DNA from: Psammoneis japonica
Lineage: Eukaryota
Assembly: GCA_008632985.1 (NCBI GenBank)
Contig: QPGO01000111.1
Coordinates: 1-64,000 of the forward strand
DNA length: 64,000 bases
Reading direction: 5' to 3'
Numbering within the stretch: the stretch's first letter is position 1; the number at the start of each line of letters is the position of its first letter. Position numbers and translations under genes: made by a program. This document shows, piece after piece, positions 1 through 55,178 of this stretch. The notes under the pieces were generated by a model. That model was not told the DNA's origin, searched no databases, and was given only the letters and a program-made list of their open reading frames with translations.

Positions 1-3000
1 GCAGCTCAGTGACCAATTTGGGGTCCGCATCAAGTCCCACCTTGCTGACAACATCCCATTCAGCACCAAGGCTTTCATGGATGACCCAGAAGAAAACAAC
101 CAAACTGTTGATTTTTCTGGTGTTGGAGCTCATCATCAAAACAGCACAGCCGAGCGCTCCATCCAAACTGTCACCTCATGGGCACAAGCTGTGCTCCTGC
201 ATGCCATTCTAATGTGGCCTGATGCTGCCAATCTGGAGTCATGGCCTTTTGCCATGACCCATGCGACCTGCCTGTGGAACCACATCCCAAAGTCTGACAC
301 TCGTGCCGCGCCAGTTGAGATCTTCTCTAAGCAACGATTTGACACTCATGCGCATCTACAGTGCTTACAGGCATGGGGGTGCCCCACATGTGTTCTTGAT
401 CCTAAGTTACAAGACGGCAAGAAACCACCTGAGTGGGACCCCAGGAGTCACCGTGGCCAACATCTGGGCATCTCACCTGATCTTTCCACCAACATCGGCC
501 TCATTTTGAATCTGTCAACCAGCTGTGTTAGCCCTCAATGTCACATGGTCTATGACAACCACACTTCGCAACAGTTCCCAACAATGACTCCGGCGGCTTC
601 TTCCAGGATGTTCCCTTTGCCGCTGACCTTTGGGAATCCCTCCCAACCGCAGACTCGCCAGTGCACAATGCTCCGCCTGAGCCTTCCAATGCTTCTGATG
701 ACCCTTGCCATTGCTTGCCGGCCTTGCACAATGATTGGCTGACCCCCACTGAGTGCCGTCATTGCGCCACTCATCGACATGACCGCCATCAACGTCGTCT
801 CAAAAACTCCAAAACGGCCCCCACCGCCGAGCCTCCTTCAACCTCTTTCATCACAGCTCCAGAGGGTGAGCTTCCTGCTGCAACAAACAAATCATCAGCT
901 GACAATCTAGAATCTGCAACTTCAGAGGCTCCAGAGGGAGTCAAGATTGATGAGTTCAGCAATGACAGCGATGACGAATTGTCCCTCGTCAATCATCACG
1001 ACTTGCCTGAGGACCCAGACTTAGGCCCTGATGAAGCTGAGCCTCCACAACTGGCTCCAAATGCCACCACACTCCAACTCGGACTCAAAGTGGTCGCACC
1101 ATCAAGAAGCCAGATCTCTTGATTAAAGCAATGCATGCTGACATCCGCACTCCACCCAACAAGTCACCGAATGCTCATAAAAATCCAAAACGTTCCGTCA
1201 AGTTGGAAACACTGAACAAACAGTTCTTGATGGCCCTGCGTTGGGATGGCATCACCAACGCACTTTGGTCCAAAGACTTGCGCGCAATGCTCAATCTTTT
1301 CAACAAAAACACCAATCAAGTTCATGGCACACTCAAAGAAATGCATCCTCTTGCCCTCGCAGCTGATGCAAATTTGGCTGATGATCCAACTTGGGAAGAA
1401 GCAATGAGTGGCCCTGATCAAGCAGCCTGTCTGAAAGCTTGTGACATTGAAATGAACTCCCTGGTCAAAGGCAAGGATGCCTGGAAAGAAGTGGATCAAC
1501 AAGATTGGATGAATGTCCTGCCGTCCACTTGGGCCTTCAAGTGCAAACGATGCCCCGATGGGTCTATCCGAAAATGCAAAGCCCGATTCTGCATCCGCAG
1601 AGACAAGCAATTGGAAGGCGTTGACTGTTTTGATGCCTTTGCTCCAGTTGTCAATTGGACAACAGCATGGCTGATGCTCACACTTTCTCAAATTTTGGAG
1701 CTCTTGACAAAACAAGTTGATTGTGTCACCGCTTTTGTTCATGCTCCGATTGACAAGGATCCCAAATGGGGCACCATGACACCCAAAGAGCGGGAACGCT
1801 CTGGCATTTTTGTGCAAATGCCTTGCGGATGCTCCAAGCCCGGCAAAGTGCTGAAACTCAAACAAACCGTGCATGGTCTCAAACAAGGACCTTGCAATTT
1901 TTTCCTGCACCTTAAGTCAAAACTTGAAGATGCCAGATTTCAATCACAAGATGATGTTGATCCGTGTCTGTTTGTATCTGACAAAGTCATCTGCCTCACG
2001 CACATTGATGACACACTGTTCTTCTCTCTAAAACAAGAGCGCATCGACAAAGTGATCGAAAACTCAAAATTGATGGCGGTCTGGCCATCAAAGTTGAAGA
2101 TTCTGTCGCAGGTTTTTCAGGAGTCCACATTGAACGCGACACCGACAATGGCACTGTCAAGCTCACTCAAAGCGGTCCATCCAAATGTGTCGTCAAAGCC
2201 CTCAATGCAGGCCATCTGCCGAAGGCCCGAACGCCCACACTGGCTGCTCCCTTGGTCAAGGACACCAACGGAGACCCACCAAATGGAGCCCACAATCATG
2301 CCAGCATGGTTGGCATGCTTCAGCATCTCCAAGGCCATTCTAGGCCAGACATTGCCCATGCCGTTAGCTCAGCAGCCAGATTTGTTCATGGCCCTCATCG
2401 CTTGCATGAACTGGCCCTTGAACGGATCGGGTGACACCTGAAGGGCACTCTGGACGAAGGTTCAATCCTCAAGCCATCTGGGGACTTCAACATTGACGTG
2501 TTTGTTGACTCAGATTTTGCTGGACTGTGGCCGCACGAAGACAAGCATGACCCGGCTTGTGTCAAAAGCCGAACAGGATTTGTCACTTGCACCTCAAACT
2601 GTCCTGTCATTTGGTCCAGTGAGCTTGCACCCGAGATCACTCTCTCAACAATGGAAGCAGAGTGCAATGCTTTTTCCACTTGCATGAAAACTGTCCTTCC
2701 CTTTCTACGCACCGTACAAGCCATTTCTCAAGGCATTGGAGTTGGTCCAGGAACTGCCAAGACTGTCCGCACCATTGTGTGGGAGGACAATGCTGGAGCC
2801 TTGACTCTGGCTAATGTGGAACCTGGCTGAGTTACGCCTGGGTCCAAGCACTGCACAATCAAGCATCATTGGCTCCGTTCACAGCTCAAACCAAATTGAG
2901 TTGCTGTGTCCAAGATCGCAGTGGACTTGCAATGCGCTGACATTCTGACCAAAGGTCTCGTTGCTGTTAAATTCGAGGCTGTTTGAAAGTTGCTTTGCAG

Positions 3001-3459
3001 TTGGCAGCTTCTTCATTCAAGAGGGAGTGTCAACACAGCATGAACTCATGTGTGACATGTGTGTGCTATGCTTGCATGTGCGATTTCCTGCCATCGGTCT
3101 TTCTCAACTTTTCTCACAATTGCAACATCCAGTGTGACAAGACATTGGCAGCTTTGCCGATTGTGCCATCATCATTGGCCCACTTTGCCAGTGACACGCA
3201 TGCCATTCAACCTCAGTCAACTTCTCCTGACTCTCAGACGAGAGTTGTCGCAGTTTGTCGGTGTTTTTCAAAAGTCATTCTGTTTCTGTCTTGTCCGTTT
3301 GGCAGTCTGATTGGGTGTGTAATTGTGCACAAAACTGCGCAACATTTGTTTTTGTGACTGTGTGGACAGTTTTGAATGGAACATGTGTCAGAGACTTTTC
3401 GATGGAAATGTTTGCCTGCATCATTGTTTGTGAATAAAATGAACAGAGGCACATTAACA
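1..3459 (+). mobile_element. Degenerate Ty1/copia LTR retrotransposon (CoDi-like): 3' part with integrase core, RT, RNase H, PPT and 3' LTR; 5' part lies outside the window
   Basis: Integrase core (GVGAHHQNSTAERSIQTV...WPFAM...WGCP...LQDGKK...WDPRS) at ~77-560. RT (VLPSTWAFKCKR.PDG..RK.KARFC, APVVNW, HGLKQ, DPCLF, HIDD for YxDD) at ~1380-2030. RNase H (VDSDFAGLW...KSRTG...LSTMEAE...WEDNAGA...ADILTK) at ~2490-2990. The IN-RT-RH order is copia. Frameshifts and stops are present. Confidence 0.93.
3028..3459 (+). repeat. 3' LTR of the copia element
   Basis: Follows the polypurine tract AAGAGGGAG (3019-3027). Begins TGTCAA and ends TTAACA, consistent with an ancestral TGTTAA...TTAACA inverted terminus carrying one TA->CA change. 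The partner LTR is not in the window, so the 3' end is inferred. Confidence 0.7.
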
Positions 3460-3856
3460 GTTAGATAAAAACAAGTGTCATTGCTCCCAAGAGATTTCCT
3501 TGGTGATGGGAGGGAACACCGAGTCGCACGACTTGTTTTCGTGCAACTTTGGAGAAACCATCGACAGATTTAGCTGGAGGGCAGCCTCGCAAAGCCATGC
3601 GAAGTCCAATGAAGTCACGTCATTTCACCGATCACGCGACTTGCAAGCCAATTTTCAGCACTTGAAGTCATCTTCTCTCAGAACATTGGTGGCACATCTT
3701 CTGCGCAATCCTCTTGTGAGATGCTCGCACGACTTGTTCGAGAACCCTCAGCTCCAAAAAAGAAAAAAGACATCAACAGGCCATGAGATGCGGTGACACC
3801 TGCACCATGGCAGAGAAAAAACAACCTGTGGCTTTGCCAGTGCTCTTGATGCTCCA

Positions 3857-4704
3857 ATGCACCCAGACAAACTTGGTGTTGGAGATGAAAACTCTCCACC
3901 AACTGGGCATGCCGCTGGAGAGGAGGGTTGTGTTGATGGGGAGGAGATGCTTGTTGGGGTGAAGCCCTCTGCATGCAACAACATGGCTGACAGAGAACCT
4001 TTGTTGGAGGTTCCAAACATCCCAAAGGAGGCTGACATTAAGGCAACAGCTGGAAAGAGGCGCCTGCCAAACCTGACAAAAGAGGTCAACCAAGAGCTGT
4101 GTTGGGATCTCTTGACACTGATCAGCACGCGAAATGCCCACTTGCCAATGCCAGATGGTGAGAGCAATCAAAGATGGCAGGAGCTTTTTGACTTGTTCTA
4201 TGATCCTGTTAATGGACCAGCCAGAGGCTGCAGTGTGCCAGAGGCAGAAAGCAAAATTCACAATTTTCGCCAAGCAAACATCCGCAGAATTTGTGTTTTG
4301 GCCAAGAAGTGTGATGCAAAGGCGGGGAAAGGAGCTGACAAGGACGCAACAGGATGTGCGGTTCTGGCAAAGACTCTCCATGCAGCAAGGCTTTCGGCAC
4401 AGGCAGCAAAGAAAGATGAGACTCAAGAGGAGCGCGCAACAAAGCAGCAGCAAGAAAAGTGACAAACGAGAGGTGTGAGTTGGAGCTTGGTCTCACACCT
4501 CCAGCTCCATTCAATGGAGGCAAGCACTCAGCCCATGGCTGTGACGTTGAGCCAACCACAGTCACAACTGTTGGGCACCTGGATGGATCAGCAAGCGGAG
4601 ACTGTCGGTCAAGGGATTTTGTGAAGAATTTGGAGGATGCTCAGAAAGGGGCTGAATCCTTGTTTTCAAATCTGTCAAGTGGACATGGCCTTTGGCTCCC
4701 CTGA
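3857..4704 (+). pseudogene. Putative Harbinger accessory (Myb/SANT-like DNA-binding) ORF, degenerate
   Basis: ORF with LCWDLLTLISTRNAHL...NQRWQELFDLFY followed by a charged helical region. Its position convergent to the transposase fits the Harbinger two-gene layout. The family assignment is inference. Confidence 0.4.
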
Positions 4705-5039
4705 GCTGCAAGCATCCAAGAAGCGCAAGCTGGATGTGGGAACATTGCGGGAGCTGCACATGCTCAAGAGCAATGTGGAAAAAAGCTGAAAAGAGGGGAC
4801 AAGCGTCCAAGCGCTTTCTGTGGAGCCATGTCTGAGGAAGTTTTTTCGTCTTTGGGCAAAAAGCCTGCCAAATCCAATGCCACCACCAAACCATCCACAA
4901 AAAGAAGTTTCAAATGATTGGTTTCTTCCCATTGTTGGCTTGGATTTAATTGATGTTTGGCAAGTTCACATTCAGGTCAAACAGCATGTTTTCAATGGCT
5001 CATCTGACTTTGGCATGCGACCTGCAGGAAGCCATAAGA

Positions 5040-5800
5040 TCGGATGTACATCAGGTGTGAAAACAAAAGCAACACCATTGGAAAGCATTCGTTCTGTAGA
5101 TAAAAGTGTCGCCATTGATTGTTGCAAAACCACAAAACGCGCCAGGAATTTTGCACGCAACTGCGGGGTCGTTTGGATGCATGAATGCTGATTCGGTTGT
5201 GCTTGAGGTGTGAAAATAAAAGCAACACCATTGAAAAGCGCTCGCTCTGTAGATGAAATTGTTGCCATTGATTGTCCCATAATTCTGGGCACTTCTAAAG
5301 CAATGCCTGTTTGAGCAAAACGCACCAGGAATTTGGCGCGCAACTGCGGGGTCGTTTGGATGCATGAATGCTGATTCGGATCTGCCAAGGGTGTGGAAAT
5401 AAAAAAGATGCCATTAGAAAGCTGTTGCTCTGCAGGTGATCTTACTGCCATTGACTGTCCCACAATTCTGAGTGCTTCTAGAGCAACGCCTGTTTAAGCA
5501 AAACGCACCCCAGGATTTTGGCACGCAACTGCGGGGTCGTCCAGACATCTCGACGCCGATTCAGATCTGATGGGGGCACAGAAATAAAAAAGACACCATT
5601 GGAAAGCTCTTGTTCTGCAGACAATGTTGCTGCCATTGATTGTCCCACAATTCCAATTGCTTTTAAAGCAATGCCTGCTCAAGCAAAATGCACAATGATT
5701 TTGGCGCGCATCTGCGGGGTCTTTTGGACACGTCGTTGACAATTCCAATCTGCTGGAGGTGTCGAAACAAAAACGCACCTTTGGAAAGTGCTAATTCTCT
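5040..5800. repeat. Tandem array of ~183-bp units (4 full, 1 partial; first unit internally deleted)
   Basis: Units start at about 5040, 5193, 5376, 5561 and 5743 and share GCCATTGA(T/C)TG and CGCAACTGCGGGGTC. The period is a multiple of 3 and the - strand translates to a repeated 61-aa peptide. Confidence 0.9.
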
Positions 5801-6209
5801 GGACAATCAACACAAACTGTAAAATGTGTTTGTGTTGTTTGCTGCAGGTGCTCTTCGACCGTTGGTGGCAAAAGGCCGAAGGTGCCAATGCTGCCAATTT
5901 GGTTGTGATTGAAACAAGTGCAGCAATTGGCTGGCAAAAATGAAACCCTCAATTGCTCACATGCATGTGGATGCTTGCAACACAGCTTCCAATCACTGAA
6001 TGTGCAACACACCCTGAACAGATTTGCTGCCACACCACAACTCCACTCAACTGCAGTGCAAACGCATTTCATCCAAAAATTCTGTAGAACTTGGATTGGT
6101 GCAAGCGGGGCACCTTGAGCAGGTCGATGCGCCTGTCTGACACATTGCCATTTGGAAACCAGCCTTGTTGGAGCTGCAACAAGCAGTTGCCAATGCCGCT
6201 GAGTTCTTG

Positions 6210-6641
6210 TGCAGCATGCCTCGCTGCTGGACAACACGGCGAGACCGTGCACAAGCCTCTTGCACGTGGCAACGTGGCATTGTTGACACGCACCTGGGAA
6301 GCACGACCACAGGAGGGCGTGGCTCTAGGTCTCAGGCAATTCCAGAAGGATGCTGAGAGAGCATCCGTGTGAAGCACACTGGCCCATCGTCTGGCCCACG
6401 ATGGCAGCGTGATTCCACACGATGACATCACTCGTGCATGGCGCGTGATGGCTTGATTTGCACGATCCATGATGCGAATGCACGATCGATTTGATGCGAT
6501 CCAAATGCAAACGAACAGGGATTTGGCAAGATTCCCCATTCACACGATCCCATTTTCTCTACTCTAAACTGGCTCACAATTTTCACAACGACAAAGTCGC
6601 AACACATCTTCTTTTTCAGCGCCCAGCACATGCACAGGGCA
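6210..6641 (+). repeat. Gypsy 5' LTR
   Basis: Direct repeat of 10687-11118 at a constant offset of 4477. Confidence 0.93.
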
Positions 6642-9600
6642 CAGCAATGTCACTCCCGCACATTGTGCGAGGTGACGAAATCTACAGAAATGAAACTACG
6701 AAATGTTGGTGGGACCGACAAATCTTAAAATGACCATGAAGAAGCAGATTGAGCTGCTGATTCCGTTCGCATGGCCGGAGAAGAAAGAGCTGCAGCAGGG
6801 CGAGTGCCAGACGTTCAAGCTGCGCAACAACCCCACTGATCCGGACAGTCCAACGCACGAGATGGGCATTCCGCACCTTTCTGTGGCTACATGCGAGACA
6901 CTCCTGATCTTTCTGCAACAACGTGGATCACGTGCACGAAGGACAAAACATCACGACCGGGCCAGCGAAATTTGCCCTCATGCGTGACCCACTGCAGGGC
7001 GATGCTCTGACGTCATTTGACAATGCCGCTGACAAGCAGGCATCCCAAACCAACGCCACATGCGCAGCATGCATCACGAAGCTAAAGGAAAGTGTCTTCC
7101 CACATGGGGCGGTGCTGTTGCAGAAGCGTTGTCTGAGGCGCTTCATGCGCAAGCCCACAGAGGTTTCCACTCGTGACTGCATCGCGAGGGCTGTTGAAAT
7201 TAACGGCTGCATCTCTCAGTTTCCACCCGTGACGGAGGATGGAGAAGCACCGGCACCATCACCTGATGACGAACTGTGCGACATGTTTGAGTGCGGTGTG
7301 CCGAACGCATGGCAGAAGTTCATGACGCTGCAGAATTTTGACCCGTTGGCGCATGCTGTCGCCGAATTTGTGCAGTTCTGCGAGCGCACCGAGCAGGTCG
7401 AGCTTGCCGAAGGCAACCGCGACCAAAATGCCAGGGTTCTACATAAGCGGGGATGTAGAACGGACAATTCTGAGTCATTGATCATGACCCAACCGAACAC
7501 CCACGTGAGACGTGTCAAGACTGGACATTCCAGCAACGGAGGCAGCAAGCCCAACACAAAACCTCGGAATGAGGAAGATGTCAATGCTCTCATCGGATCG
7601 AAGGTCAAGGAGTTCTTTGCCAACGCTCAGAAAAAGCGCAAGGCACGCGAGGAGGAGCTTGATCACTTCCGCGACCTCAACTTGAGTGATTCCGAAGATT
7701 CGGGCGCTTGCCGACACGACACAGGCAGTTTTAACACATTGGGTGAATGCACAAATGAACAACTGAATTGCCATCGTACACGTGTTGTAGGCCAATCCCG
7801 CAAACGAGTTAAAAAGACTCATCTCACTCCAATCTTGTTCACAGCTGTGAATGCTAAACATGGCAAGGGCAAGACTCAAACCATTAAGGCACTGCTAGAT
7901 AGTGGCGCCAGCAGTGCTCTACTCGACAGTCGATACTGTAAACGTCTGCGAAGCCATTCAACGGCTGAGACAAACTGGACTACGGTAGCAGGCTCGTTCA
8001 GTACGTCTAACGACTGTACCGTTAAATTTTGGTTACCAGAATTATCCGAAACTGAAGAACTTAAACTACCGTCCACGTACACAACGGAAAGTTGGGCAAG
8101 TACGATATGATTATTGGACGTGACATTCTGGAGACACAAGGCATTGATATTGTCTTCTCTAAACAGATGATAGAGTGGCCATTAGTCAATGGAGAAGTGC
8201 CAATGAGGCACGTAGATGCTACGGTAGAAACCTCCTTCTACCTTCAAGATCCAGAAGCCTTATCTTCGGAAACCGACCGGATTTCGTATTTTAGACGCTA
8301 AGTACGCGCCGGCCTGCCTCGAGGACATAACGCGAGAGGCAATAAGACTTTCTATAGTTCACTAAAATGACCTTTTGGCACTATTGAAACGCCATGAGTC
8401 CTTATTTGATGGGACATTAGGAGAATGGAAGGGAGAACCCTACCATATCCAACTCAAGGAGGGTGTAGAACCATGCCACGCTCGTCCGTATAAAGTACCT
8501 CGTGCGTACGAAGCTACGCTACGTAAAGAAGTAGAACGCCTAGTACGTATCGGTGTTCTCAAACGCGTTAACCGATCCCAATGGGCAGCTCCATCATTTA
8601 TCATACCGAAGAAAGATTTAACGGTACGCTTTATTAATGATTTGAGAGAGCTGAATAAACGGATCAAGCGATTGCCTTGTCCGATTCCTCACATCCAAGA
8701 TATGCTACTTAAGCTCGAAGGCTTTATGTGGGCTAATCGCTGGATTTAAATATGGGCTATTATCACGTCCGATTGGATGCTGACAGCAAGAAGCTCTGCA
8801 CGCTCATCTTCCCGTGGGGCAAGTATGAGATGCAGGTATTGCCCATGGGATTATGTAATTCGCCAGACATTTTCCAAGAACGCATGTCAGGCTTATTTGA
8901 AGATCTATCGTTCGTTCGAACGTACTTAGATGACCTTCTCGTCGTGACGAAAGGCACCTATGAAGATCACCTCAACAAACTTGAAGAAGTTTTATTGAGG
9001 GTCCAGAAAGCAGGACTAAAAGTTAACGCAACTAAATCTCACTTCTGTCAAACCCAATTAGAACACTTGGGTTGTCTGGTCAACAGAGACGGAATACGAC
9101 CAATACCTAATAAAGTCGACGCCATTAAGCGAATCGCGACCCCAACCAATAAACGCGACCTTCGCTCATTTATTGGTATGGTGAACTACTACCGCGACAC
9201 GTGGATAAGACGTTCTGAAGTCTTGGCTCCGCTAACACGACTCGTAAGCGAGACTGTTAAGTGGGAGTGGACGTCCGTTGAAGACGAGGCGTTCGAAACC
9301 GTTAAACGGGTGACATCGGATGATGTTTTATCATCACATCCTGATTTTAACAAACCCTTTGAGATGCATGCCGATGCCTCTAAATGTCAATTGGGAGCAG
9401 TTATATCCCAAGATAATAAACCTGTCGCCTTTCCATCGAGTCGTCCTTTGCATGAAGCTTTTAATGCAGACGCGCAAGATGAGATGTCTCTGCCCATTGG
9501 CTTCAAGCGCATTCAAAAAGCACAACAAAAGGACAAGCGCCTGCTCTCACGAGCCAAGGACTCGTCCGACTGCTCCATTCGTGCGTGTCGTGGGGGAGGG

Positions 9601-10686
9601 TCATCACGACAGTTGATCTGTCACAAGGACAAAATCGTGGCACCACAGTCATTGCAGGTTCCGCCAACTGAATGGCGCCACGAGACACTGTGTCATCCAG
9701 GTGAGACACGTGCGGAAATGTCTGTTGCCCAGCACTTCTGTTGGCCTGGTGTGAGGTCTACGGTGCATTCTACGTGCGTCAAGTGCGATCGATGCCAGAA
9801 GACAAAACGCCGAACGCAGCATCATGGGAAGCTGCCAGAAAAGGTCGCCGAGACAATTCCATGGGAGACTCTGTGCATGGACATGATGGGGCCATGTAAA
9901 ATTCAAAGACGCGGAAAGGACACTTTGCAATTGTGGGCAGTCACAATGATTGACCCAGCAACCGGGTGGTTCGAGATTGAAGAAGTGTCTGCGAAATGCG
10001 CAGACGTCGCAGCAAACGTCGTGGAACAAACGTGGCCATGCAGACATCCGTGGCCAACCCAGGTGGTTTATGACCGTGGGACAGAATTTGTGGCAGAATT
10101 CACATTTAGCCAGATGATTAAAAATGACTGTGGGATTTTGAAGAAACCCACAAGTGAGCGAAATCCACAGGCGAATGCCACAGTGGAACGTGCACACCAG
10201 ACACTTGGCAACATGGCACATTCCTTTTCAGCGCAGGACATGGAACTGGACGAAGATGACCCATGGAGTGGCATCCTCTCCGCAGTGGCCTTCGCCATTA
10301 GAGCCACGGTGCATGCGACCACGCGTGCAAGTCCCACGCAATTGGTCTTCGGACGCGATGCGGTTTTGTCTGTTGCCCATCGTGCCAAGTGGAAGCACAT
10401 GGAAACCAGAAAACAGAAGCTCATCCAATTAAATGACAAGCGTGAAAATCAGAAATGCAAGGAGCATCAATGTGCCGCAGGGCAATTGGCACTTGTCAAA
10501 CAGGAACAATCCTCTAAACGCGGTTCTGACAGCTGTGCAGGACCCGCCAGAGTTGTCCGTGTGCATGACAATGGCACATTGCGTGTCCAGAACGGAGTGC
10601 TGACAGATGCGCACAATCTACGGCAGATTGCACCCTGTCACCAGCAAGACATCCTGTCACTTGACGGCCCTGATCATGGGGGAGTG

Positions 10687-11118
10687 TGCAGCATGCCTCG
10701 CTGCTGGACAACACGGTGAGACCGCGCATGAGCCTCTTGCATGTGGCAACGCAGCATTGTCAACACGCACCTGGGAAGCACGGCCACAGGAGGGCGTGGC
10801 TCCAGGTCTTGGGCAATTCCAGAAGGATGCTGAGAGAGCATCCGTGTGAAGCACACTGGCCCGTCGTCTGGCCCACGATGGTGGCGTGATTCCACACGAT
10901 GACATCACTCATGCATGGCGCGTGATGGCTTGATTCGCACGATCCACAATGCGAACGCACGATCGATTTGATGCGATCCAAATGCGAACGAATGGGGATT
11001 TGGCAAGATTCCCCATTCACATGATCCCATTTTCTCTGCTCTAAACTAGCTCATAATTTTCACAACGACAAAGTCGCAACACATCTTCTTTTTCAGCACC
11101 CAGTGCATGCGTGGGGCA
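10687..11118 (+). repeat. Gypsy 3' LTR
   Basis: Follows the PPT; direct repeat of 6210-6641. Confidence 0.93.
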
Positions 11119-12400
11119 CTTGAAGCCTTGAATCAGCTCTGAGCAGTCAAAGGGGAAAGCGACATTTATTTCAGGTGTTTTCATGTGACTCATTGGCACA
11201 CACAAGATCGCTGCTCACCTTCCAGCTGACACTGGCCCCACACAATTGAGACTCCATTTGGCAAGGAGATGCTGAGGACCTTTGTGCCAAGAAATTTTTT
11301 TATGCCACGTGTGCACTGACCGCTGCACGTCACAGGCGTTTGGCTTTCTAGGTGCATCGACCCAATCTCCAATGGGACCTGTTCCTGGGGTCTCCATCTC
11401 AAAGATGGAGCAGTCCATGAATCCAAGCATGTTGAATGCACCATTTGCAAACCACAAACCTGGCAACAAATGCTGCACTTGATTCAATGGATTTGTCCAA
11501 TGTGAAGGTGTGGCCAATTTTTGTTCAATTGCAGCCACAAATCGTGGAAAGTCATCCACCCATCGCTCAAGACTGTTTCTGTCCAAGAGGTGCCCAAACC
11601 AGCGCTCAGTGCGCCAAAGGAACCAAGGGTGTCCACGCGACCACCGCTTGGTGTTGCCACCAAAGAAACCTTCACACAATCTGACGTTGTCGAGTCCAGT
11701 CACAATCTTTGTCAAAGAAAACAAAAAGAGCTCTTCACCTCCAAACACACACACTTTGTTGCCAGCTGCTGGAACTCTCATGGCTTGTGGCAGACCAAAA
11801 AGCACACACAGGCGGTGCACCTGCTCATGGTCAAACTGTGTGCAAATCCTGAGCCACGCATTGGAGCAGTTGTCAATTAGCCTGTGTCTAACTCGCTCAA
11901 AGCTTGGATCCATTTCAAGCTCTTCTTGGAATGGAATGTCAGCAAGGGCTGCATCTTGCCTCGCCCAATGATCTGCAAGATGACGACACGCAACCAAAGC
12001 TGTCAACGAGCAAGCCGCACCAAAATTGAAGGGTTGTTCATCGTCCAATTCTTCTCCCAAATCCAAATCTGCAAGGTCATGCTCATGATTGATCAGAAGA
12101 AGAAAAATGGCGAGAAATGCCGTCCAATGAATGACTCCTTTCAAGGATGTGGACCAAAGCAAATGGCAAGCACGCAACAAAGATTGACCACCGGTGGGAA
12201 GCGCATGATTTCTGCACTGGCAAGGAGTGTGCCTCATTGCAGCACGGCGGCGATGTCCATTGTGGCGGTGAGGAACCCTTGGCATTTCCACTGCAGCTGT
12301 TTTGTTCTTTCTCCATTTTGCACTTGCTGGTTTTGCAAACGGGAAGCCGCTTCGAACAACCCACATGACATGGTTGCTGCTCTTGTCGCATGACTTCGGA

Positions 12401-12978
12401 GCTTGCGGCTTCACTTGAAGAGATGATGACGTGCACCCGCGGTTGGTGGTGTCTGCTGGGCGCAGACGAAATCACACCATTGGCTGCGAAGCAAACTAGA
12501 CAGCTTCCATTGTCTTGTTGCACCTCTGTGTCAATTCCCGTCTCTTGACAATTGTCAATTGCGGCCATTGATCAAACTGCATGACCTTTTTAAGACTCTG
12601 TGCGGGGGCCAACATCCACAGCAACGACTTCCGGGAACCCACCAAGAAGTCTGACGCAAGCATCAAAGAGCGCCGGGTTCCGACAAAATGTCCTCGATTG
12701 CAAACCGGCAGTTTGGGTGTCGTGTTTTTGGCAATGTTAATTGACTCAAGTGACTTGTCAATTCCAAAACTGCAAGGTAAGTGAGTGGTTTCCTCTGCTG
12801 CTTTTGTTTCTGGTGCAATGGCTGGTTGAACCCGGTCAACCGGCAGTCTACAATCACAACCTGGAATGACCACAATTGTTTCCTCTTGTTTGTCAAATGT
12901 GGTTCAAGTATGTTTAAGGGCATTAAATTGCTTCGCCGAACATGACAGGTCGAGCCCTGGACGTCGAACAAGAACACC
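12401..12978 (-). pseudogene. Decayed partial duplicate of the methyltransferase-like gene at 14729-15592, including its 3' flank
   Basis: Colinear with ~14641-15290, e.g. CCTCTGCTGCTTTTGTTTCTGGTGCAATGGCT and GACAAAATGTCCTCGATTGCAAAC. Has frameshifts and a deletion that removes the FLEIG SAM-binding segment. Confidence 0.9.
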
Positions 12979-13303
12979 ATGACTGCATGATGATTCGAAT
13001 CAAATTTCGGAAACGCAAGTCGAAACTCTGAACCGCGACCCACCCGCGACCTTACGAATCAAGCACGAATCAGCCGCGTACAGCAGTCGTACTTACAGTA
13101 GAACGTGCTTTCGCAGTACGCACGGTACATTTTCTGCATCTGATTGACATCCACGACTCACTTCCTGTCACAAAACCAAACACGCAACAGTACTAACGAA
13201 AATGAAAGACTGCGACGGGAATTAGCACATTTCCATATCCAAGAATAGAAAGAAAAGCCTTATAATACAACACGTTACTATAGCAACCAATTAAAGCAGC
13301 ATC

Positions 13304-28591: not shown

Positions 28592-30178
28592 ATGACGAGT
28601 AGTAAGAAGCATTTTCTGTTACTTCTCGCTTCAGTATTGCTTCTCAGCCGAAACGCGTCTGCCGATACAGAAAACGATAAGTGTCCTTCGTCACTGCTGC
28701 ACTACGAAGAGTTTTACATCAACGGCACGTGGGTAAAGCCAGTGTCTCCGACGCCTACACTCCTCCCCGTTATCAACCCGTCAACTGCTGACCCTATTGT
28801 CTCGATATCGTTGGCAAGCTCACAAGATGTAGACGCGGCTGTATCAGCGGCACGCGATGCCTTTCCGTCGTGGTCTCACGAAACGACTGTGCAAGAGCGA
28901 ATTGGTTTTATCGAGAAACTGCTAGAGATTTACCTGGAACGGCAAGAAGAAATGGCTCAGTTGATTTCCATGGAAATGGGTGCTCCTATTGACATGGCTC
29001 GAGACGGCCAAGTAGGTTCAGGCGCCTATCACATTGAAGACTTTTTACGAATTCTCCACAACGAGGAGTTTGAGTTTGAACGGACGCTTCCTGGCGACGA
29101 TCCAGATGATCCAGCAACAAGGATATTCATGGATCCAGTGGGAGTCGTGGCCATGATTACACCGTGGAATTGGCCCATGAATCAAGTCACGCTCAAAGTC
29201 ATTCCCGCCTTGGCTGTCGGTTGTACCTGTGTTCTGAAACCATCCGAAATTGCGCCGCTCTCGTCCTTGTTGTTTGCCGAAATGATGCACGAGGCTGGTT
29301 TCCCGCCCGGTGTTTTTAATTTGGTCAATGGCGATGGAGAGGGCGCTGGAACACTATTGACAAGCCACCCATATGTAGACATGGTGTCCTTCACCGGATC
29401 CACGAGAGCAGGAAAGCTCATTACAAAATCCGCAGCGGATACATTCAAGCGAGTCAGCCTCGAGCTTGGAGGAAAGGGAGCCAATCTTATTTTTGCGGAT
29501 GCTCCAAATGTGTACGAGACGATTGAATACGGAGTGCATGGCTGCTTTGGGAACTCTGGCCAATCATGCAGTTCTCCATCTCGAATGCTGGTGGAACGGA
29601 GTATCTATGACAAGGCAATTGAGATTGCACAAGAGGTTGCAGAGGAGGTTGAGGTCGATTCGGCGGATAAAGAGGGCGACTTTTTGGGACCCGTCGTGAG
29701 CTTGCAGCAATGGGAAAAGATACAAAAATACATTGAAACTGGCATTGCGGAAGGAGCTCGGTTGGTGGCGGGTGGTTTGGGCCGGCCCGAGGGGACGAAT
29801 GGACGTGGGTACTTTGTAAAACCAACCGTCTTTTGTGACGTTGACAACAGCATGACGATTGCAAAGGAGGAAATATTTGGTCCCGTTTTGTCCATCATAC
29901 CGTTTGACACGGAAGAAGAGGCATTGGCCATTGCCAATGACACACCGTACGGCCTCACAAATTACGTTCATAGCATGAATGGCAATCGTCGAAGGCGTTT
30001 GGCGCGGCGTCTTCGTTCCGGTATGGTCGAAATGAACTACGAGGAGGGCGCAGATGGGTCGCCGTTTGGTGGGGTAAAGGCAAGTGGGAACGGTCGAGAG
30101 GGAGGAGTATGGGGAATGCAAGAGTTTTGCGAAGTCAAGGCCATCACGGGATGGTTTGACGAGGAAGACGCAGGCTGA
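28592..30178 (+). CDS. NAD-dependent aldehyde dehydrogenase with an N-terminal signal peptide
   Basis: ITPWNWP, KPSE, SFTGST, LELGGK, catalytic GQSC, EEIFGPV, PFGG.K.SG.GREGG. Intronless. Confidence 0.95.
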   Translation: MTSSKKHFLLLLASVLLLSRNASADTENDKCPSSLLHYEEFYINGTWVKPVSPTPTLLPVINPSTADPIVSISLASSQDVDAAVSAARDAFPSWSHETTVQERIGFIEKLLEIYLERQEEMAQLISMEMGAPIDMARDGQVGSGAYHIEDFLRILHNEEFEFERTLPGDDPDDPATRIFMDPVGVVAMITPWNWPMNQVTLKVIPALAVGCTCVLKPSEIAPLSSLLFAEMMHEAGFPPGVFNLVNGDGEGAGTLLTSHPYVDMVSFTGSTRAGKLITKSAADTFKRVSLELGGKGANLIFADAPNVYETIEYGVHGCFGNSGQSCSSPSRMLVERSIYDKAIEIAQEVAEEVEVDSADKEGDFLGPVVSLQQWEKIQKYIETGIAEGARLVAGGLGRPEGTNGRGYFVKPTVFCDVDNSMTIAKEEIFGPVLSIIPFDTEEEALAIANDTPYGLTNYVHSMNGNRRRRLARRLRSGMVEMNYEEGADGSPFGGVKASGNGREGGVWGMQEFCEVKAITGWFDEEDAG

Positions 30179-30379
30179 CTTTTTTTAATCAAACGTATTT
30201 GCGGAATGACATCCTACCTACTGAAAGTTAACTATTGCTTCAGGATCGCGCATACATTTTTGTTGATTGAGACTAGAACTTTCAAAGCCAATCTATTCAA
30301 CAAAAACATCGCTCGTATTTTATCGTGAGCGTTCGCTTGTTGGACATTCACCGAGCCATCGTCTACCACACTGTAGCTA

Positions 30380-32480
30380 CCGCGCTGGTTACATATCTAA
30401 GAAGTAACTCTAGAGTCGTAGCTCTTCGACTAAAAGAGCAATAAGTCGAAATTAGAGAGTCATACGCAGAGCGAAGGTCGAGGGGCGTTCGGAGGGTGCG
30501 GAGGAAACGAAGGGGAGCAGTCCGGTGGTGCGGACAGAGAGGGATTGCAGCATAGAAAGGATTGACATGTGGAGAAACGGTCGGAGATAGCTGTTCCAAA
30601 GTTGAGGCTGAGGAGCTGGGAAGCCCAAGATTGGGGGCAGATGAATGGTGCAAAGAGCTGAATTGGTCAGCAGAGAGTTGCTTCCAGACAACACACCTCG
30701 GTTGTGTTGTTTGCTTGGGGGGGGGAGGAGAGAGGTGCTGGAGAGAGAGAGCAGTGGTGTTTCTTGAAAAGCTGCAAATGAACAGGAGAAACTGTGGGAG
30801 ACGTGGAGCCATGAATGAGCTGCACATTGACACTGACAGGGCATTTGGGAGGATGGCTGGTTGGGAAGCCAGCTGGTTTGAGCAGGAGAACATGCTGAAG
30901 GGAGGGGGCAAGAGGTTTGACAACTTGACAACAGTGCAGACAGCAGCATCATGTGTGTGTTTAGAGAGAGGGCCCTTGTGAGTTGTGGGACATTGGAAGG
31001 CATGTTCCCTGAAAGAGTCAAGAACATGCTGGCAGCCACAAGGGGCAGGAGGAGCAGCAAAGGTCCAGAGGGAAAACAGGTGGGCAAAGATTCCAGAGGA
31101 GGAGAAAGGTGAGTTGGGAAGAGGAGAGATGGTTGGACAAGTGGGCTCAGGAGAGAAAGTGAAGACAGAGGCCAGTGAGCAGGGGGCTTGTTGAAAGTCA
31201 AGGTGATTGAGGAGGCCGGGGGTGTGGCATCACCACATTTGTGACAACAAACAAGGTGCAGACATGTTGAGCAAGGCTGCAAAGGCCACAGGGTGGGCTG
31301 CATCAGAAAAAAGATGGGTGAGCCAAGGTGTTGGAAGACAGAGCAGAGAGGCAAGGGGAAGAGCAAGAGTTGAGCCAGGAAGAGAAGGAAGCAGAGTGAC
31401 TGGGTGGGAGGGTGAGCTGCTGGTTGTTGGATGGGGAGATGCCATGTTTTGCCAGGTGGGAGGAACAGGCAAGAGAAACAAGGAGGGAAGGGATGGAGGC
31501 AGCGCAGATGTCATGGCAGCCAGTGCGCTGCCAAGAGGAACAAGGGGTGGGCAATGAGCTGGGTGGAGATGGGAAGCAAGAGAGGTGCCGCAGCAAGGTG
31601 ACAAAAAAGAGAGACTGCCTGATGAGAGCAAAAGAAAAAGGAGAAGCCCAGTGGAAGAGGCTTGGCTGACCTTGGAGGGCAGTTGAAAATTACAGTGGAC
31701 ATCAGATGAAAGAAGAGATGTGGGGGGTGGAGGAAACAAAGCAGCATCTGCAAAATGGCGTGCCCCCCAATTTTTTGTCAGCTGCACAGGGGTGACAAAA
31801 AACAGGACAATGAGCAAAGGAGTTGGCATCATCAGAGAGAAAGCTGGGGGCAAACTCAAAAATCCAGCAGGTCAACCAAGGAGTTGATAAGAGCATCAGT
31901 GTCTTCAGGGTTTTGTCGCGGTTGGCCGCTGGGCTCACAAAAGAAAAGGCATCAGAAAAAGCAGCAGCAACATTGTCAGCACAGAGAGAGAGAGAGAGAG
32001 AGATGGAGAGGACAGGGATGATGTGAGGAGAGATCTTGGTCTTGGAGCGGTCGAGGACAGTGTCGAAGCAAGGCAGGGGCAAAAAAGGAGAGGTGGCGGT
32101 GCAGGAGCAAAAAAAGGAGTGATGGAGCAAGAGGGAGGAGGGCACATGGTTGGTGTCATCAAGGCAAGAGGAGGTGGCAGCCTTGGAGTGGGCTGGAAGG
32201 CAAAGCTGTCATTCTTGGTTCAGAGGAGCAAGGGCCCTGCCTGGCAAGAAGGACAAGACTGGAGAACAAAGGTGGGCCAAGCTGGCGCCAGTCTTGGACG
32301 AACCCTTCTGCTGCTGGCTGTTGGAGAAAGTCACGGCACACCAACAAACGTTGGGTTCTTGACACATGAGGTGGAAAAAGGGGAGGAGAGGTCGAAATTT
32401 AGGAGAGGAAGAGAGCGCAACGCGACAGGCATCCCGGGAAGCTGCCATGCTTTGGAGGGGTTTTGGCAGCCACCGACCAA
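30380..32480 (-). mobile_element. Degenerate 5'-truncated non-LTR retrotransposon relic (CRE/Ambal-like RT)
   Basis: Fragmented RT-like peptides on -: SRDACRVAL...LLPFFHLM.QEPNVCW, EGFVQ..LGPPLF (QGxPLxP-like), SFLSDD (YxDD-like), LGG.PF. Strong purine skew, TpA and CpG nearly absent, (AG)n at ~31982. Confidence 0.55.
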
Positions 32481-32696
32481 CGACCAACAACGACCAACGA
32501 CGAGACGCACATTCCAATTCAACATGAGACAAAAAGACGCGACTGAAACTTTATGAACGTATTTAACTTTGAAGATTGATTATATATGAACATCCTCAGA
32601 TCTGAACAAACGATACATTTGGAACTTTGGAGCTTGCTTCCATTGTTCCACGCAGAAACAATGGCACAACTTGATCGAGAGCTTCATTGAACCGCC

Positions 32697-51199: not shown

Positions 51200-54100
51200 G
51201 CAGCTGTATGTCGTGCTCATGGTCACGCAGTCTCGCGGACGACTCACTCCTCGCGTTTTCAGCATCGCGCCCCTCGACGCGACGCTCAGTCGCGAGCAAG
51301 TCTGTGCGTGCACTGCGTGCATCCATCACCATCGCTGCACTTGCAGATTCTGAAATGTCCCTCTGTTGCACCATTGCAGCAAAGCGTTCCTTCTCCTTCA
51401 CAACCTTCGATGCAGATGCAATCGCACTGCCGGGCGAGTTGGTGCACTCACTGTTGGTGACATTGGCACAAGGACTGAGATCATTTCAAAGAGACTGGGT
51501 CAAGCTCGCATCATCCATTCTGACACCCTGGTGGCCATGTGCCAAGAAGGCTCACGGCATGGACATCTGTGTCGAGTTCACAGGAATTGTTTGCTTCAAC
51601 ACTGCAATCACACTGCATGGACCCACCCACTCCAGACCCCTTGAAGGTCAAATGGTTGTTTCCATCAATGACAATTCCCGGGTCAGTGGCACAACTGAAG
51701 CTTCCACACACTCATGACTTTTTCCCGCCGCAATGGCCAATGACGCACTTGCTGAACCACTTAAAAATGTCATCCATGTGGCTCTCGTGGCCTTCAGTGT
51801 GCAGAAGCAACTGCACAAAATGCAGCAGATGCAGCCACCTGGCTGTTCGATGCAGAGTGGCGTGTTTCACATCATTGAAAACTGTGTCTCCCATGCCAAA
51901 GAAGTTGTTGTCAAGCCTGCACAACTGATGATTCTTTCATTGCCCTGCAACCTCTGAATCTGGCTCTTCACAGTGTTTTGGGCCACAAAAGGATGAAACA
52001 AAGAAACAGGGGCAAGAAGAACTTGTGAACAAATGCCCCCGATTCACATGATGCAGCCGAGCCAGCCAAACACTCGCCCTTTTGTGCTGTGGCAGAGCAA
52101 CACAACAAATGCTGACAAAAACTGCAAAAAATGGTGCAGATCATCATGGCAGTTAGATTTGCAGGACAGCAAGCAATGCAGCCAGTGAGCAAAAGATCTT
52201 GGATGATGGCAAGAACTTTTTTGATTTGTGGGAGATTCGTTCCACAGAAATCTGCAGGGATCTCTTGGCATGTTTCCAGCCAGAGTTAAGTTCAGAGAAC
52301 CTTTTTGAGGAAGTTTGTGGAATGACAGCATGCCATGAAACCAAAATGACCCAATCACTCCAGTTGCCAAGTGATTGCTCTGGACAAAAGCCACAGAGGT
52401 GTGATTGTTCTGCTCACAGGTTCCAAGAATCTGTTGTGTTTTCTTTTTGCTGAGATTGGCAACAAGAACAGCTTCACTTGGCAGTTGTCCAACTGCAGCA
52501 CTTTCTTCTCTGGCCAGACAAAACAGCACTGCAGCACTCATTGGCAGGCCAACAAGCCCTCCACACAGCTCATCTTGGTCTTTGTTTTGGCTTCTTTTGG
52601 TGGTGATCTGTGCTTCCTCCCCAGCACACATTCTCCTTTTGCATTGCCACAGCAATTTTTGCACTTTGTTTTGAAGTGTCTCTCTCCTTCTTTTTGAACA
52701 CTCCAACAAATCTTGAACAAACACAGCACTTTGTGATTTTGGCAAATCCCCAGACAACCTCCACAGGGATTTCCACAATGACCAACTCACACTTCACATT
52801 CTTCAACATGGCTGCCCAGCCAGCACTGGCATCCTTTCTTGTTCAAAAAGGATTTCCACAACAACAACCAATTTGGCTGTTTTTTTCTGCTCAATGACTG
52901 CTCCAGGACAAAAGTGGACAGCTCACACTGCTGCCTTTTCCTGCTCAGCACCAACCAGAGCAGATGCTTGCATGGAAAAAGCCAGCGAAGGTGCTCAACA
53001 ACAACAGAGAGAGGGCACATCTCTGCAAGTGCAGTGCCCATGCAAAAGCACTGCAAGGCTGTCAGTGGTGTGAAGTGCACCCAGCACACAAAAAGAGGAC
53101 TTCATTGTGGTGCCCTCAAAGACAACCCCTGGTGCACTTTTGCAGCTGAGGCAAAGTGCAATCTTGACATTGTTGGGTGTCAGAGAGGCTGAGTTAACCT
53201 CAAATCTGCCTGCCCCATGAGCAATGGACCCAAAAGAAGAAGCTTGGGTAGAGAGCTGTTCTGCTTGCCTTGCCACCCTGAAAAAAACTCCTGGACAACA
53301 AATTTGCATAGAAGCAGCACCAGTGCCCCCCAGTGGAAATGCCAAAAAAGTCCAGAATTTTGTGATTTTTTGACATTCCTGGCACTGTTTCCATGCTTGA
53401 TTCTGCACAGTTTCTGGAAGTTCCTGACTTTCTTGGCATTTTTGCTGTGGGACCCTGCTGGTGCTGCTTCTGCATTAATTTGGTTTTCTGGCATTCTTTT
53501 TGTGGGGTGCCTTGCAAATGATGCAAAGGTGGGTCAAAAGAAAAAGAAGTGTGGCTGATCATAAGATGCGTCACACATGTTGGAGTTTCATTCTTTCTCA
53601 TTGCACAAATGACAGAGGGCCTCAAAAATGTCAGTGAACCTCAGAACAACATTTTTGTAAAGGAAAAGACTGGACAACAAATGACAGGGTAAAGAAATTG
53701 AGGAGGTGAATGATGCCATTCCTGTGATGACCACATTGTTGCACAGACACATCACCAGCAGCCTGAGGTGCATTGGCTTCTTTGGAGGTGTGCACAGCTG
53801 GCCAGTGGGGCTGCTCACAAACAGACAAGCAGGAGCATTGGGGAGGATGTGGTGCCCTGCAGCTTGAAGGCATCAGTGCAAATGAGTCATGCCATCAGCC
53901 CATCAGCTGATGCACGAAATGGCTGATCCACTGCTTTTGAAGCTGGTGCGCTGTTTTGTTCCAAAAGGTTCAGAGGCAACCACATGAAATGGTGGTGTCT
54001 GCCTGCTGGTTTTGAGAAAGTGCCATTGTTTCCCAAGGTGCAAAAGCTCTTGCCTCAGAGATGAAGCACAGCATGCACACAGATTGAGAGCAGAGTTTAC

Positions 54101-54950
54101 AAATTTCCAACACACAGTGGAGCAAGCACCACACATCACAAAACTTTCAAAAAGCTGTGTGTGGACCAGGTGCAACAACTCTCCTGCAAGACTGGCCAGC
54201 AGAAAAGACAGTGTTGTCATGCCAACACATTTGATGTGGGGAAGGCAACATGCATGTCCTGCATTGAACACCCATGTTGATTTTAGAAGAGGTTTGGACT
54301 GCCTTTGCCATGCACTCTGGCAGAGTCAGCCCTTGTGTGAACATCCAGAGGTGTGCGCACAAGGCAGCATCAACCACACTTCATCTGTGCTGCCTTCTTT
54401 CCTGACCTGCTCTCAACATGGAAGGTTTGCACCACTTCCCTGACTCGCCACTTGGGTCTGTGCCACTGGGTCTGTGCCTGCATGAGGCAACTCAGAGAAC
54501 AGCATCTCCTGTGCTCCACTGCAGTCCCAGTGCATTTGCCATGACACCCTTTGCTGCCTTTTGATCAGGTGAGAAGAGACCAACAGTGTTCTGTTGTGTG
54601 TGACACAAGGTTGAAAAAATGATGCATGCAACCACATGCACAAAGCTCATGCAAAGAATTGACAGTTTCTTTGCAGCTGCAACATCCCTCCCAAAAATGT
54701 GTCTAACCCTGATGCTCAATCCACAGCTCATGCCAAGCAGGAGTGTGCAACAGTGTGGATGAAGAGTGGGACAACACCAATGTGCCCAGCGATGATGCAC
54801 ACATGGCCACCATTCCTGACGCCAAAAAAACAACCAAGTGTAAATGAGACAAAATGTCGTCAATGCCACAAAAGCCAGACGTTTAACATGCCGTGGAGGA
54901 CAAGACGCCCTCCCAAACTCAGCGTCAAGAATTGCAGCATGCCTTCTGGC
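51200..54950 (-). mobile_element. Heavily degenerate DNA transposon relic, probably MULE/MuDR-like
   Basis: No intact ORF. Remnant peptides on - (QLPSEAVLV, GTCEQNN..SVAFVQS, HAVIP, IDGNNH..K) resemble a MULE DDE core. TpA and CpG are almost absent. No TIRs found. Confidence 0.45.
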
Positions 54951-55178
54951 TGTACCGGTAGGGACTCTAGAATGAAAAAGGCCAAGAGAGCCCTAGCCAA
55001 GTAAGCATCTGCATTAAAGACTGGGCGGAGTTTAAAAATAACCAACACAAGCACGATGCACTAAGCACACCTAGCAGCAGATAGGCTGCAATTGTATGGA
55101 AAGATTCGGTCGGTATCTATGCTTTGAATATCAAACTGTTGAAAGCCTCTTCACATTGTGTAGCCATAGCCTTATACC

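Follow-up and report, generated by a model that had tools for sequence, protein, structure and literature searches.

Probable independent loss of TpA steps in the two long terminal repeats of a diatom Ty3/gypsy retrotransposon

How can the two long terminal repeats (LTRs) of a single retrotransposon come to differ by transitions only, nearly all of them located at pyrimidine-purine (YR) steps? This question is raised by an element in a stretch of 64,000 nucleotides from the diatom Psammoneis japonica (GenBank assembly GCA_008632985.1, contig QPGO01000111.1, positions 1 to 64,000 of the forward strand). The whole stretch is termed the window here and all coordinates refer to it. The element in question (6210-11118) is a complete LTR retrotransposon of 4,909 bp with LTRs of 432 bp, TG...CA ends and the target-site duplication (TSD) CTTG. 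It belongs to Ty3/gypsy and is situated in a transposon-rich island of the genome. The direct repeats with their TG...CA termini are bordered by a duplication of 4 bp, and the typical pol order RVT_1, RT_RNaseH_2, Integrase_H2C2 and rve was found in 8737-10719, together with a DSGA protease motif in 6908-8110. We consider it probable that a process changing TpA to CpA or TpG (TA to CA or TG in the following) acted after the synthesis of this element, struck both LTRs independently and was regionally confined.

An ungapped comparison of the LTR pair (6210-6641 versus 10687-11118) reveals 34 mismatches in 432 positions, which corresponds to 92.1% identity. Every one of the 34 is a transition and no indel occurs; the self-BLAST alignment of the pair is likewise gapless. 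Under the assumption that transitions make up two thirds of changes, such an outcome has a probability of about 1e-6. The differences extend over the full length without forming a patch (13, 12 and 9 in successive thirds). YR steps, which comprise 240 LTR positions, carry 33 of them and the other 192 positions only one (6306/10783). If the paired YR steps are sorted by their states, CG is present in both LTRs at 22 sites, CA is opposed to TG at 9 sites, CG to TG at 6 and CG to CA at 5, TA to CA at 2 and TA to TG at 2, and TA is kept in both at 1 site. The 13 sites of the TA class are 6252, 6275, 6284, 6326, 6333, 6405, 6470, 6516, 6560, 6570, 6577, 6627 and 6635. An original prediction, made from the letters of this stretch alone, had described the pair as free of indels and as differing nearly exclusively by transitions within these classes, and this description proved correct, including all sites that it had named (TA/CA at 6326/10803, TA/TG at 6560-61/11037-38, TG/TA at 6570-71/11047-48, CA/TA at 6577/11054 and CA/TG at 6252-53/10729-30). 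Transversions, which at equal frequency would have spoken against it, make up 0 of the 34 differences.

The states of the element family were taken from run X1, of which 5,414 contigs map on the element; the variable places comprise 441 transitions versus 16 transversions. Family states of individual sites come from 40 of 460 variable places listed, and family shares are given as percentage of X1 contig depth. CpG-class differences (11 of the 24 differing LTR sites, or 11 of the 34 differing positions) represent a separate, smaller component, which is mostly ordinary C-to-T decay and not TpA loss. At the LTR sites 6386, 11019 and 11022 the family has CG, so ordinary CpG decay occurred in the window copy; 11019 shows the decayed state in both LTRs and thus lies outside the differences of the pair. 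Of the three CpG-class differences with a known family state (6386, 11022 and 10725), two represent ordinary CpG decay.

Decay of methylated CpG could in principle be the only process at work. The CA/TG sites would then be CG steps changed on opposite strands, and the TA/CA and TA/TG pairs would be background C-to-T changes. This explanation agrees with the 11 LTR sites at which CG faces TG or CA, with the CG of the family at the three sites mentioned, with at least 16 window-specific CpG decays in the element (among the variable places listed) and with the CpG-poor composition of the transposable-element (TE) blocks; moreover, Hoguin et al. (2023, PMC9998398) report CpG methylation of diatom transposons by DNMT5a. 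Nevertheless it fails quantitatively. The 22 intact and 11 singly decayed sites give a decay of 0.20 per LTR, which predicts 0.69 CA/TG sites from opposite double decays, as compared with the 9 seen (P=5e-8, a 13-fold under-prediction). Neither does it account for the observed/expected ratio of TA in the LTRs, which is 0.13 versus 0.8-1.2 in the centre of the element, nor for the conserved tyrosines described below, of which 0 of 8 and 0 of 4 are kept in two affected coding regions. CpG decay as sole cause is therefore very unlikely.

A model of TA loss, in contrast, describes the pair well. From one TA/TA, four TA/other and nine CA/TG sites it yields a loss of 0.87 per LTR and 22.4 ancestral TA steps, and base composition predicts 23.0 TA in the LTR at an observed/expected ratio of 1. 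Since these two numbers agree, and since the centre of the element and its relatives have normal TA, the LTRs were TA-normal when made and each then lost most of its TA independently. This means that TA was lost separately in each LTR after both were formed. The original prediction that the CA/TG sites result from opposite-strand changes on an ancestral TA or CG is in line with this. It had furthermore placed the loss in the chromosome after insertion: the separate loss per LTR after synthesis has been borne out, while the chromosomal setting is likely but unproven.

The direction of change can be read from the coding sequence. We compared pol with 60 homologues (44-57% identity) and regarded a column as conserved if 80% or more of them share the residue. 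Differences occur in 33 of the 180 conserved columns of the TA-poor part of pol (9463-10719). Its 8 conserved tyrosines have all been replaced (five are TGT Cys, two CAT His and one CGC Arg), whereas 6 of 8 are still present in 8737-9462, the TA-rich part (Fisher p=0.007). Eighteen of the changes in the TA-poor part are single steps from TA to CA or TG and only 3 are CpG decays, and all 6 A-to-G changes at codon position 1 are preceded by T. Single changes in the 3' zone of pol include 11 from TA to TG versus 5 from TA to CA, a strand bias that is not significant (p=0.21). A relic of copia type upstream of the element (1041-2441), compared with 60 other homologues, gives a similar picture with 0 of 4 conserved tyrosines kept (2 Cys, 2 His). 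Of its 10 conserved arginines 4 are kept, the others being 2 Gln CAA, 2 Cys TGC, 1 Trp TGG and 1 Val; in total the relic exhibits 8 TA losses and 13 CpG decays. Thus depleted DNA (the pol 3' zone and the copia relic) has kept 0 of 12 conserved tyrosines versus 6 of 8 in the centre.

Sites that vary within the family point in the same direction. At 8825, 8852, 8894 and 8923 the window copy has TAT, TTA, TTA and TAC, which encode the residue of 55, 60, 60 and 60 of the 60 outgroups, respectively, so the TA codon corresponds to the outgroup residue at 4 of 4 informative sites (among the variable places listed). The CA/TG allele at these sites reaches 35-83% of family depth. Outgroups and family thus identify TA as ancestral and CA/TG as derived; TA was lost and not gained, as the original prediction had proposed.

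Site 8923 deserves attention in its own right. The tyrosine of the catalytic YxDD motif, which is present in the window copy and in 60 of 60 outgroups, is replaced by CAC (His) in 83% of family depth (4 contigs). Therefore most copies of the family are probably dead, through the same process that affected the window copy. The window copy itself is also defective, as indicated by a reverse transcriptase (RT) frame that is split near 8735 and by a partial match to the RNase H profile (63 of 100 positions, Pfam). At 8735 it is without an extra C that is present in 73% of family depth, and its RT frame is offset from 8366-8749.

The direction of change also bears on a mechanism like repeat-induced point mutation (RIP), whereby C-to-T changes at CpA/TpG would make TA, and TA would be the derived state. 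Differences of TA versus CA/TG are the classic footprint of RIP, and many diatoms have RID-like DNMT4 genes, whose function is given as unknown by Hoguin et al. (2023, PMC9998398). However, the affected DNA is poor in TA and rich in CA/TG, which is the opposite of RIP, and at conserved Tyr, Leu and Ile positions the TA-containing codon is the ancestral one. In addition, the pol frame of 660 codons has no stop in spite of at least 18 missense changes. A-to-G and T-to-C changes cannot make stops, whereas C-to-T changes would; RIP would turn Gln and Trp codons into TAA and TAG. A RIP-like origin is thus extremely improbable, and RIP of the fungal type was rejected on the grounds that TA is depleted, CA/TG is enriched and the direction given by outgroups and family is opposite.

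Within the element the loss of TA is confined to both ends. There are 12 TA at 6326-7456, none at 7457-7731, 114 at 7732-9462, none at 9463-9758 and 13 at 9759-11054 (Table 1). The borders of the spared centre are sharp to tens of bases, and its first kept TA is at 7732. Close to this border the family still documents the former state: TA is found in 56-84% of family depth at 7534, 7555, 7580 and 7661, where the window copy has CA/TG, and its share at 7582 is 40%. In the internal end zones the loss estimated from observed/expected ratios is about 84%, equal to the 87% estimated for the LTRs. CpG decay follows the same geography. The window-specific decays mentioned above all lie in TA-poor zones and none in the centre, at least 10 of them at 6746-7607 (among the variable places listed). 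Both family CG at these listed sites and the replacement of Arg by Cys, His, Gln or Trp in the outgroup tests are what decay of methylated CpG leaves behind.

Table 1. Features of the retrotransposon and of the transposon-rich blocks in the window (TA, CG and CA/TG values are observed/expected ratios unless counts or percentages are given)
Feature	Position	Strand	Remarks
TSD CTTG, left copy	6206-6209	+	identical to 11119-11122
5' LTR	6210-6641	+	432 bp; 3 TA (0.13), 27 CG
Internal 5' zone, leader and gag-like, TA-stripped	6642-7731	+	TA 0.07-0.26
Gag-protease open frame	6908-8110	+	400 codons; retropepsin-type LLDSGAS motif near end (translation)
Spared centre	7732-9462	+	114 TA (6.5% of dinucleotides); TA 0.8-1.2, CG 1.05-1.37
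Pol open frame	8737-10719	+	660 codons; RT, part of RNase H, integrase zinc finger, integrase core (Pfam)
Internal 3' zone, TA-stripped	9463-10686	+	TA 0.11-0.18
Purine-rich tract GGGGGAGTG adjoining 3' LTR	10678-10686	+	likely polypurine tract, judged by position
3' LTR	10687-11118	+	432 bp; 3 TA (0.13), 28 CG
TSD CTTG, right copy	11119-11122	+	
Older TE block upstream	1-6205		TA 0.03-0.36, CG 0.28-0.73; copia-type RT relic 1041-2441 (+)
Tandem repeat in upstream block	5133-5728		183 bp, 3.2 copies, 78% matches
Older TE-like block downstream	11123-13000		TA 0.03-0.2, CG 0.36-0.75
Open frame in downstream TA-poor block	11215-12471	-	418 codons; possibly eroded transposase
Block with TA and CG nearly gone	30500-32500		TA 0-0.11, CG 0.04-0.49, CA/TG 1.4-2.1
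Block with TA and CG nearly gone	51500-55000		TA 0-0.22, CG 0-0.33
Block at window end, runs off	62500-64000		TA 0-0.07, CG 0.1-0.32

This arrangement can be questioned from the side of gene conversion. A separately mutated copy might have overwritten the LTRs and end zones, or a pristine copy might have restored the centre. In favour of this are the thousands of contigs of the family, in which 441 of 457 variable places are transitions, and the borders of the zones, which are sharp to tens of bases. Yet the 34 differences cover the whole LTR without a patch, the loss in the LTRs equals that in the adjoining internal zones and the TSDs match. Furthermore, gene conversion would change the location of TA loss but neither its direction nor its independence. 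We assign it a small chance. As regards the spared centre alone (7732-9462), it may represent either a protected domain or a later gene-conversion patch.

Another possibility is that TA was lost from both ends of the linear cDNA before integration, still after the synthesis of the LTRs. The depleted zones reach similarly far from the two ends of the element (1,522 and 1,656 bp) and leave the centre untouched, as would be expected then. But the depletion runs unbroken into the flanking DNA on both sides. Five blocks of the window (1-7700, 9500-13000, 30500-32500, 51500-55000 and 62500-64000) have observed/expected ratios of 0-0.36 for TA, 0-0.95 for CG and 1.3-2.3 for CA/TG, as compared with about 0.5-0.7 for TA and about 1 for CG in genic DNA. 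These TpA-poor and CpA+TpG-rich blocks are bounded and contain gypsy and copia sequences; in the oldest-looking ones TA and CG are both near zero. G+C amounts to 0.50 in the blocks versus 0.48 in genic parts, and TA constitutes 3.0% of the dinucleotides of the window and 3.8% of those in genic parts. The same footprint also marks a repeat that is not an LTR, namely the 183-bp tandem repeat of the upstream block: of its 61 variable columns, 47 vary by transitions only, and 9 of 40 YR columns have CA and TG in different copies (one of those with CA, TA and TG). Such footprints in the non-LTR parts of other blocks and in a tandem repeat do not suit a process on cDNA. CpG decay in the same zones is easier to reconcile with chromatin-bound methylation, and the one case in which such a process was directly observed, in the alga Bigelowiella natans (see below), concerned integrated DNA. 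Loss on cDNA is thus quite unlikely. It is likely that TA was lost on integrated chromosomal DNA rather than on unintegrated cDNA or by gene conversion.

The metagenomic relatives of the element serve as a control for these compositions. Seven pol relatives with 43-63% identity, none of them of the same family, were used as outgroups and for TA content: their observed/expected TA is 0.68-0.98 overall and they have no depleted ends. The best protein relatives of pol in a collection of 5.8 billion proteins are metagenomic and at most 57% identical, so the own family of the element is not contained in this collection (best pol match 57% identity). An exact 25-base word of the LTR gave no match in metagenome contigs, and no third copy of the LTR exists within the 64-kb window. 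A side observation concerns one distant relative (L005, pol 43% identical), whose terminal repeats (1-289 versus 5029-5317) differ at 13 of 289 positions. Twelve of the 13 differences are transitions and 8 are TA versus CA/TG, at normal TA of the contig (0.98); they are unpolarised.

Sequencing or assembly could also have played a part, if modified bases in silenced DNA had been miscalled as transitions. The blocks are probably heavily modified DNA and no library type is recorded for X1. On the other hand, 6000-6235 is reproduced by an X1 contig without any difference, this run contains 59% of the 31-mers sampled from 6000-11400, the length of contigs in a k-mer assembly (up to 315 kb) implies that the reads are accurate, the 432 bp of LTR are free of indels, and the footprint matches a process that was measured by Illumina sequencing in another alga. 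An artefact of this kind is highly improbable.

Several observations weigh against the reading given here, i.e. the independent loss of TpA in both LTRs after their synthesis. Run X1 may be the assembly data of the window itself, so that it gives no independent proof against a base-calling artefact. The state of the family could be read at 4 LTR sites, which all belong to the CpG class, and at none of the 13 TA-class sites. The spared centre with its sharp borders could be a later gene-conversion patch and not a protected domain. Finally, the restriction to TpA is not absolute. The sites 7509, 7533 and 8241 are A:T-to-G:C changes outside TpA with 88-100% family support, and 9676, 10519, 10725 and 6306 are further exceptions. 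At 9676 the Tyr of the outgroups is CGC (Arg) in the window. At 10519 the outgroups have Tyr, the family TGC and the window CGC (Arg), and at 10725 the family has TG (100%) and the 3' LTR has CG (among the variable places listed), which makes both of them TG-to-CG changes. A former TA can take a second change onward to CG and so create a new CpG. On account of the changes at 9676, 10519 and 10725 the preference for the TpA context is considered strong, not absolute.

There is also a hint of a wider motif. In depleted DNA 9 of 118 surviving TA are followed by T, while the spared centre has 31 such cases among 114 (p=1e-4). Its mirror form, TA with A on the 5' side, is not significantly depleted (16 of 118 versus 22 of 114, p=0.29). 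This hints at TAT as the preferred target.

What does this imply for the age of the insertion? Over all LTR sites the divergence K is 0.086, which has to be compared with 1 difference in 192 non-YR positions. In addition, 6205 is connected to 11119 in one X1 contig of depth 59.9, in which 4,913 bases are left out and 4 bases overlap, just as an uninterrupted target site would produce; the contig of the left junction has a depth of 62.1. This suggests that the insertion is heterozygous or polymorphic, or that a paralogous empty site exists. A point that has to be set against this is that the joint is found in one contig, with the entry 'between: not known'. LTR-divergence dating is inflated at least 16-fold here (0.086 versus 1 in 192), and the original prediction, which had warned that such dating would greatly overestimate the age, finds support in these values and in the possible empty-site contig. 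For illustration only, rates of another organism can be used, namely those reported for B. natans (211 mutations, 6,169 TpA, 3,132 generations). At about 1.1e-5 per TpA per generation a loss of 87% takes about 2e5 generations, while K of 0.086 at the B. natans background of 3.5e-10 reads as about 1e8 generations. Indirect hints of a rate above background in the diatom are the 33 differences in 240 YR positions versus 1 in 192 non-YR positions and the possible empty-site allele.

In the proposed course of events both LTRs would have been made from one template and would then have undergone context-specific changes from TpA to CpA or TpG. These changes would be A:T-to-G:C transitions, each event affecting a single strand of the palindromic step. 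About 87% of TpA would thus have been removed in each LTR and a comparable fraction in the 1.1-1.2 kb of internal DNA next to it at both ends. About 20% of CpG in the same zones would have changed to TpG/CpA, as expected of methylated transposon DNA. The 1.7-kb centre would have escaped both TpA loss and CpG decay, and the other transposon blocks of the window would bear the same two signatures at saturation. The TpA-directed A:T-to-G:C process acts on both strands and makes no stop codons, and it is confined to sharp-edged transposon stretches, where it is co-located with CpG decay. It presumably works on integrated chromosomal DNA. As proposed for B. natans, it would be driven by an enzyme that deaminates adenine at TpA to hypoxanthine, which is read as G. 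Its targets would be silenced or methylated foreign DNA, recognised by the same mark that brings cytosine methylation.

The closest known counterpart was described in B. natans, a chlorarachniophyte (Rhizaria). Of the 231 new mutations that its mutation-accumulation lines acquired in two integrated regions (of giant-virus and virophage origin), 230 were A-to-G or T-to-C, all at TpA (Mettrop et al. 2026, bioRxiv 10.64898/2026.01.13.699255). The same study gives a hypermutation rate of about 6e-7 per site per generation, reports TpA-poor and CpA+TpG-rich clusters enriched for reverse-transcriptase and DDE domains in a genome in which TA makes up 6.0% of dinucleotides, and proposes an ADAT2-like adenine deaminase. 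Likeness to the diatom element thus consists in A-to-G and T-to-C changes at TpA, which give TpG or CpA depending on the strand and are restricted to foreign DNA, and in the TpA-poor, CpA+TpG-rich clusters with reverse-transcriptase and DDE genes. There are also differences. In B. natans the process was seen directly, whereas in the diatom it is deduced from an LTR pair and outgroups. In the B. natans study no CpG change went along with it, in contrast with the CpG decay in the same zones here. In the diatom only the outer parts of a 4.9-kb element are affected, and a few changes fall outside TpA. A full-text literature search found no report of TpA-directed hypermutation in diatoms.

Other systems share only parts of the pattern. 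RIP of ascomycetes likewise is a transition-only, dinucleotide-specific and bounded erosion of repeats that proceeds per copy and inflates divergence. But it changes C:G to T:A mainly at CpA, makes TA, raises A+T and creates stops, whereas here TA is destroyed, G+C is slightly up and no stops arise. Deamination of methylated CpG explains the class of CG versus TG/CA (11 of 24 LTR sites) and the CpG-poor blocks but cannot remove TA. Editing of retroelements by APOBEC3 or ADAR is also an enzyme-driven source of clustered transitions, and ADAR prefers U before the edited A. These enzymes act on minus-strand cDNA or on RNA, so that one strand is marked and the LTRs are left alike; in the diatom element both strands are changed and the LTRs differ. 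ADAR-like editing of RNA and APOBEC-like editing of the minus strand were rejected for this reason (11 TG and 5 CA; 34 LTR positions that differ in both directions).

Some features of the window remain to be mentioned. Its genes encode an aldehyde dehydrogenase, a Sec7/BIG-type protein, Snf7, an RBBP4-like protein, a DEAD helicase, an MscS-like protein and a DUF6824 protein, all with long uninterrupted frames. For the DUF6824 part and the helicase, the nearest Atlas clusters are most frequent in Bacillariophyta (scores 0.87 and 0.98). A dinoflagellate origin, in which hydroxymethyl-uracil at TpA might have played a role, was rejected, as a spliced-leader motif gave 0 matches with up to 2 mismatches allowed and the genes are poor in introns and include the diatom-type DUF6824 domain. 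B. natans was likewise rejected as host, given its TA share of 6.0% versus 3.0% here and the single long frames of the genes. Pfam scans gave no match for the gag-protease frame or for the 418-codon frame on the opposite strand (Table 1). The TA-poor blocks 1-13000, 30363-31871 and 52044-52793 contain many long frames on both strands without any family match; such frames arise because the stops TAA and TAG have been eroded. At 30001-32000, where TA and CG are nearly absent, the forward strand has a strong purine skew (GC skew 0.365, AT skew 0.243).

With this finding, the newly described targeted mutation of TpA to CpA/TpG would no longer be limited to one chlorarachniophyte but would reach a second major lineage of algae, and the idea of a common and possibly ancient defence against mobile DNA would become testable. 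The LTR pair can be regarded as a natural clock experiment, in which the changes came after synthesis, per copy and at about 87% of the sites, while other sites stayed almost untouched. For annotation it is of relevance that eroded transposons keep very long frames, as TAA and TAG vanish, and can mislead gene finders, and that similarity searches miss TA-eroded copies. That CpG has decayed within these sharply bordered zones as well suggests a testable connection to DNA methylation or chromatin. We tentatively suggest, as a possibility that is still rather doubtful, a diatom genome defence which mirrors RIP: a machinery directed at silenced, methylated foreign DNA would erode TpA by adenine deamination, and CpG along with it, in sharply bounded domains, and would be fast enough to saturate even an insertion that is still polymorphic. 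If true, such a defence would destroy codons for Tyr, Leu and Ile while creating no stops, and all LTR-based ages and ORF-based gene calls (those from open reading frames) in these genomes would be biased by it. If homologous to the Bigelowiella system, it would represent an old defence common to the SAR (Stramenopiles, Alveolata, Rhizaria) supergroup.

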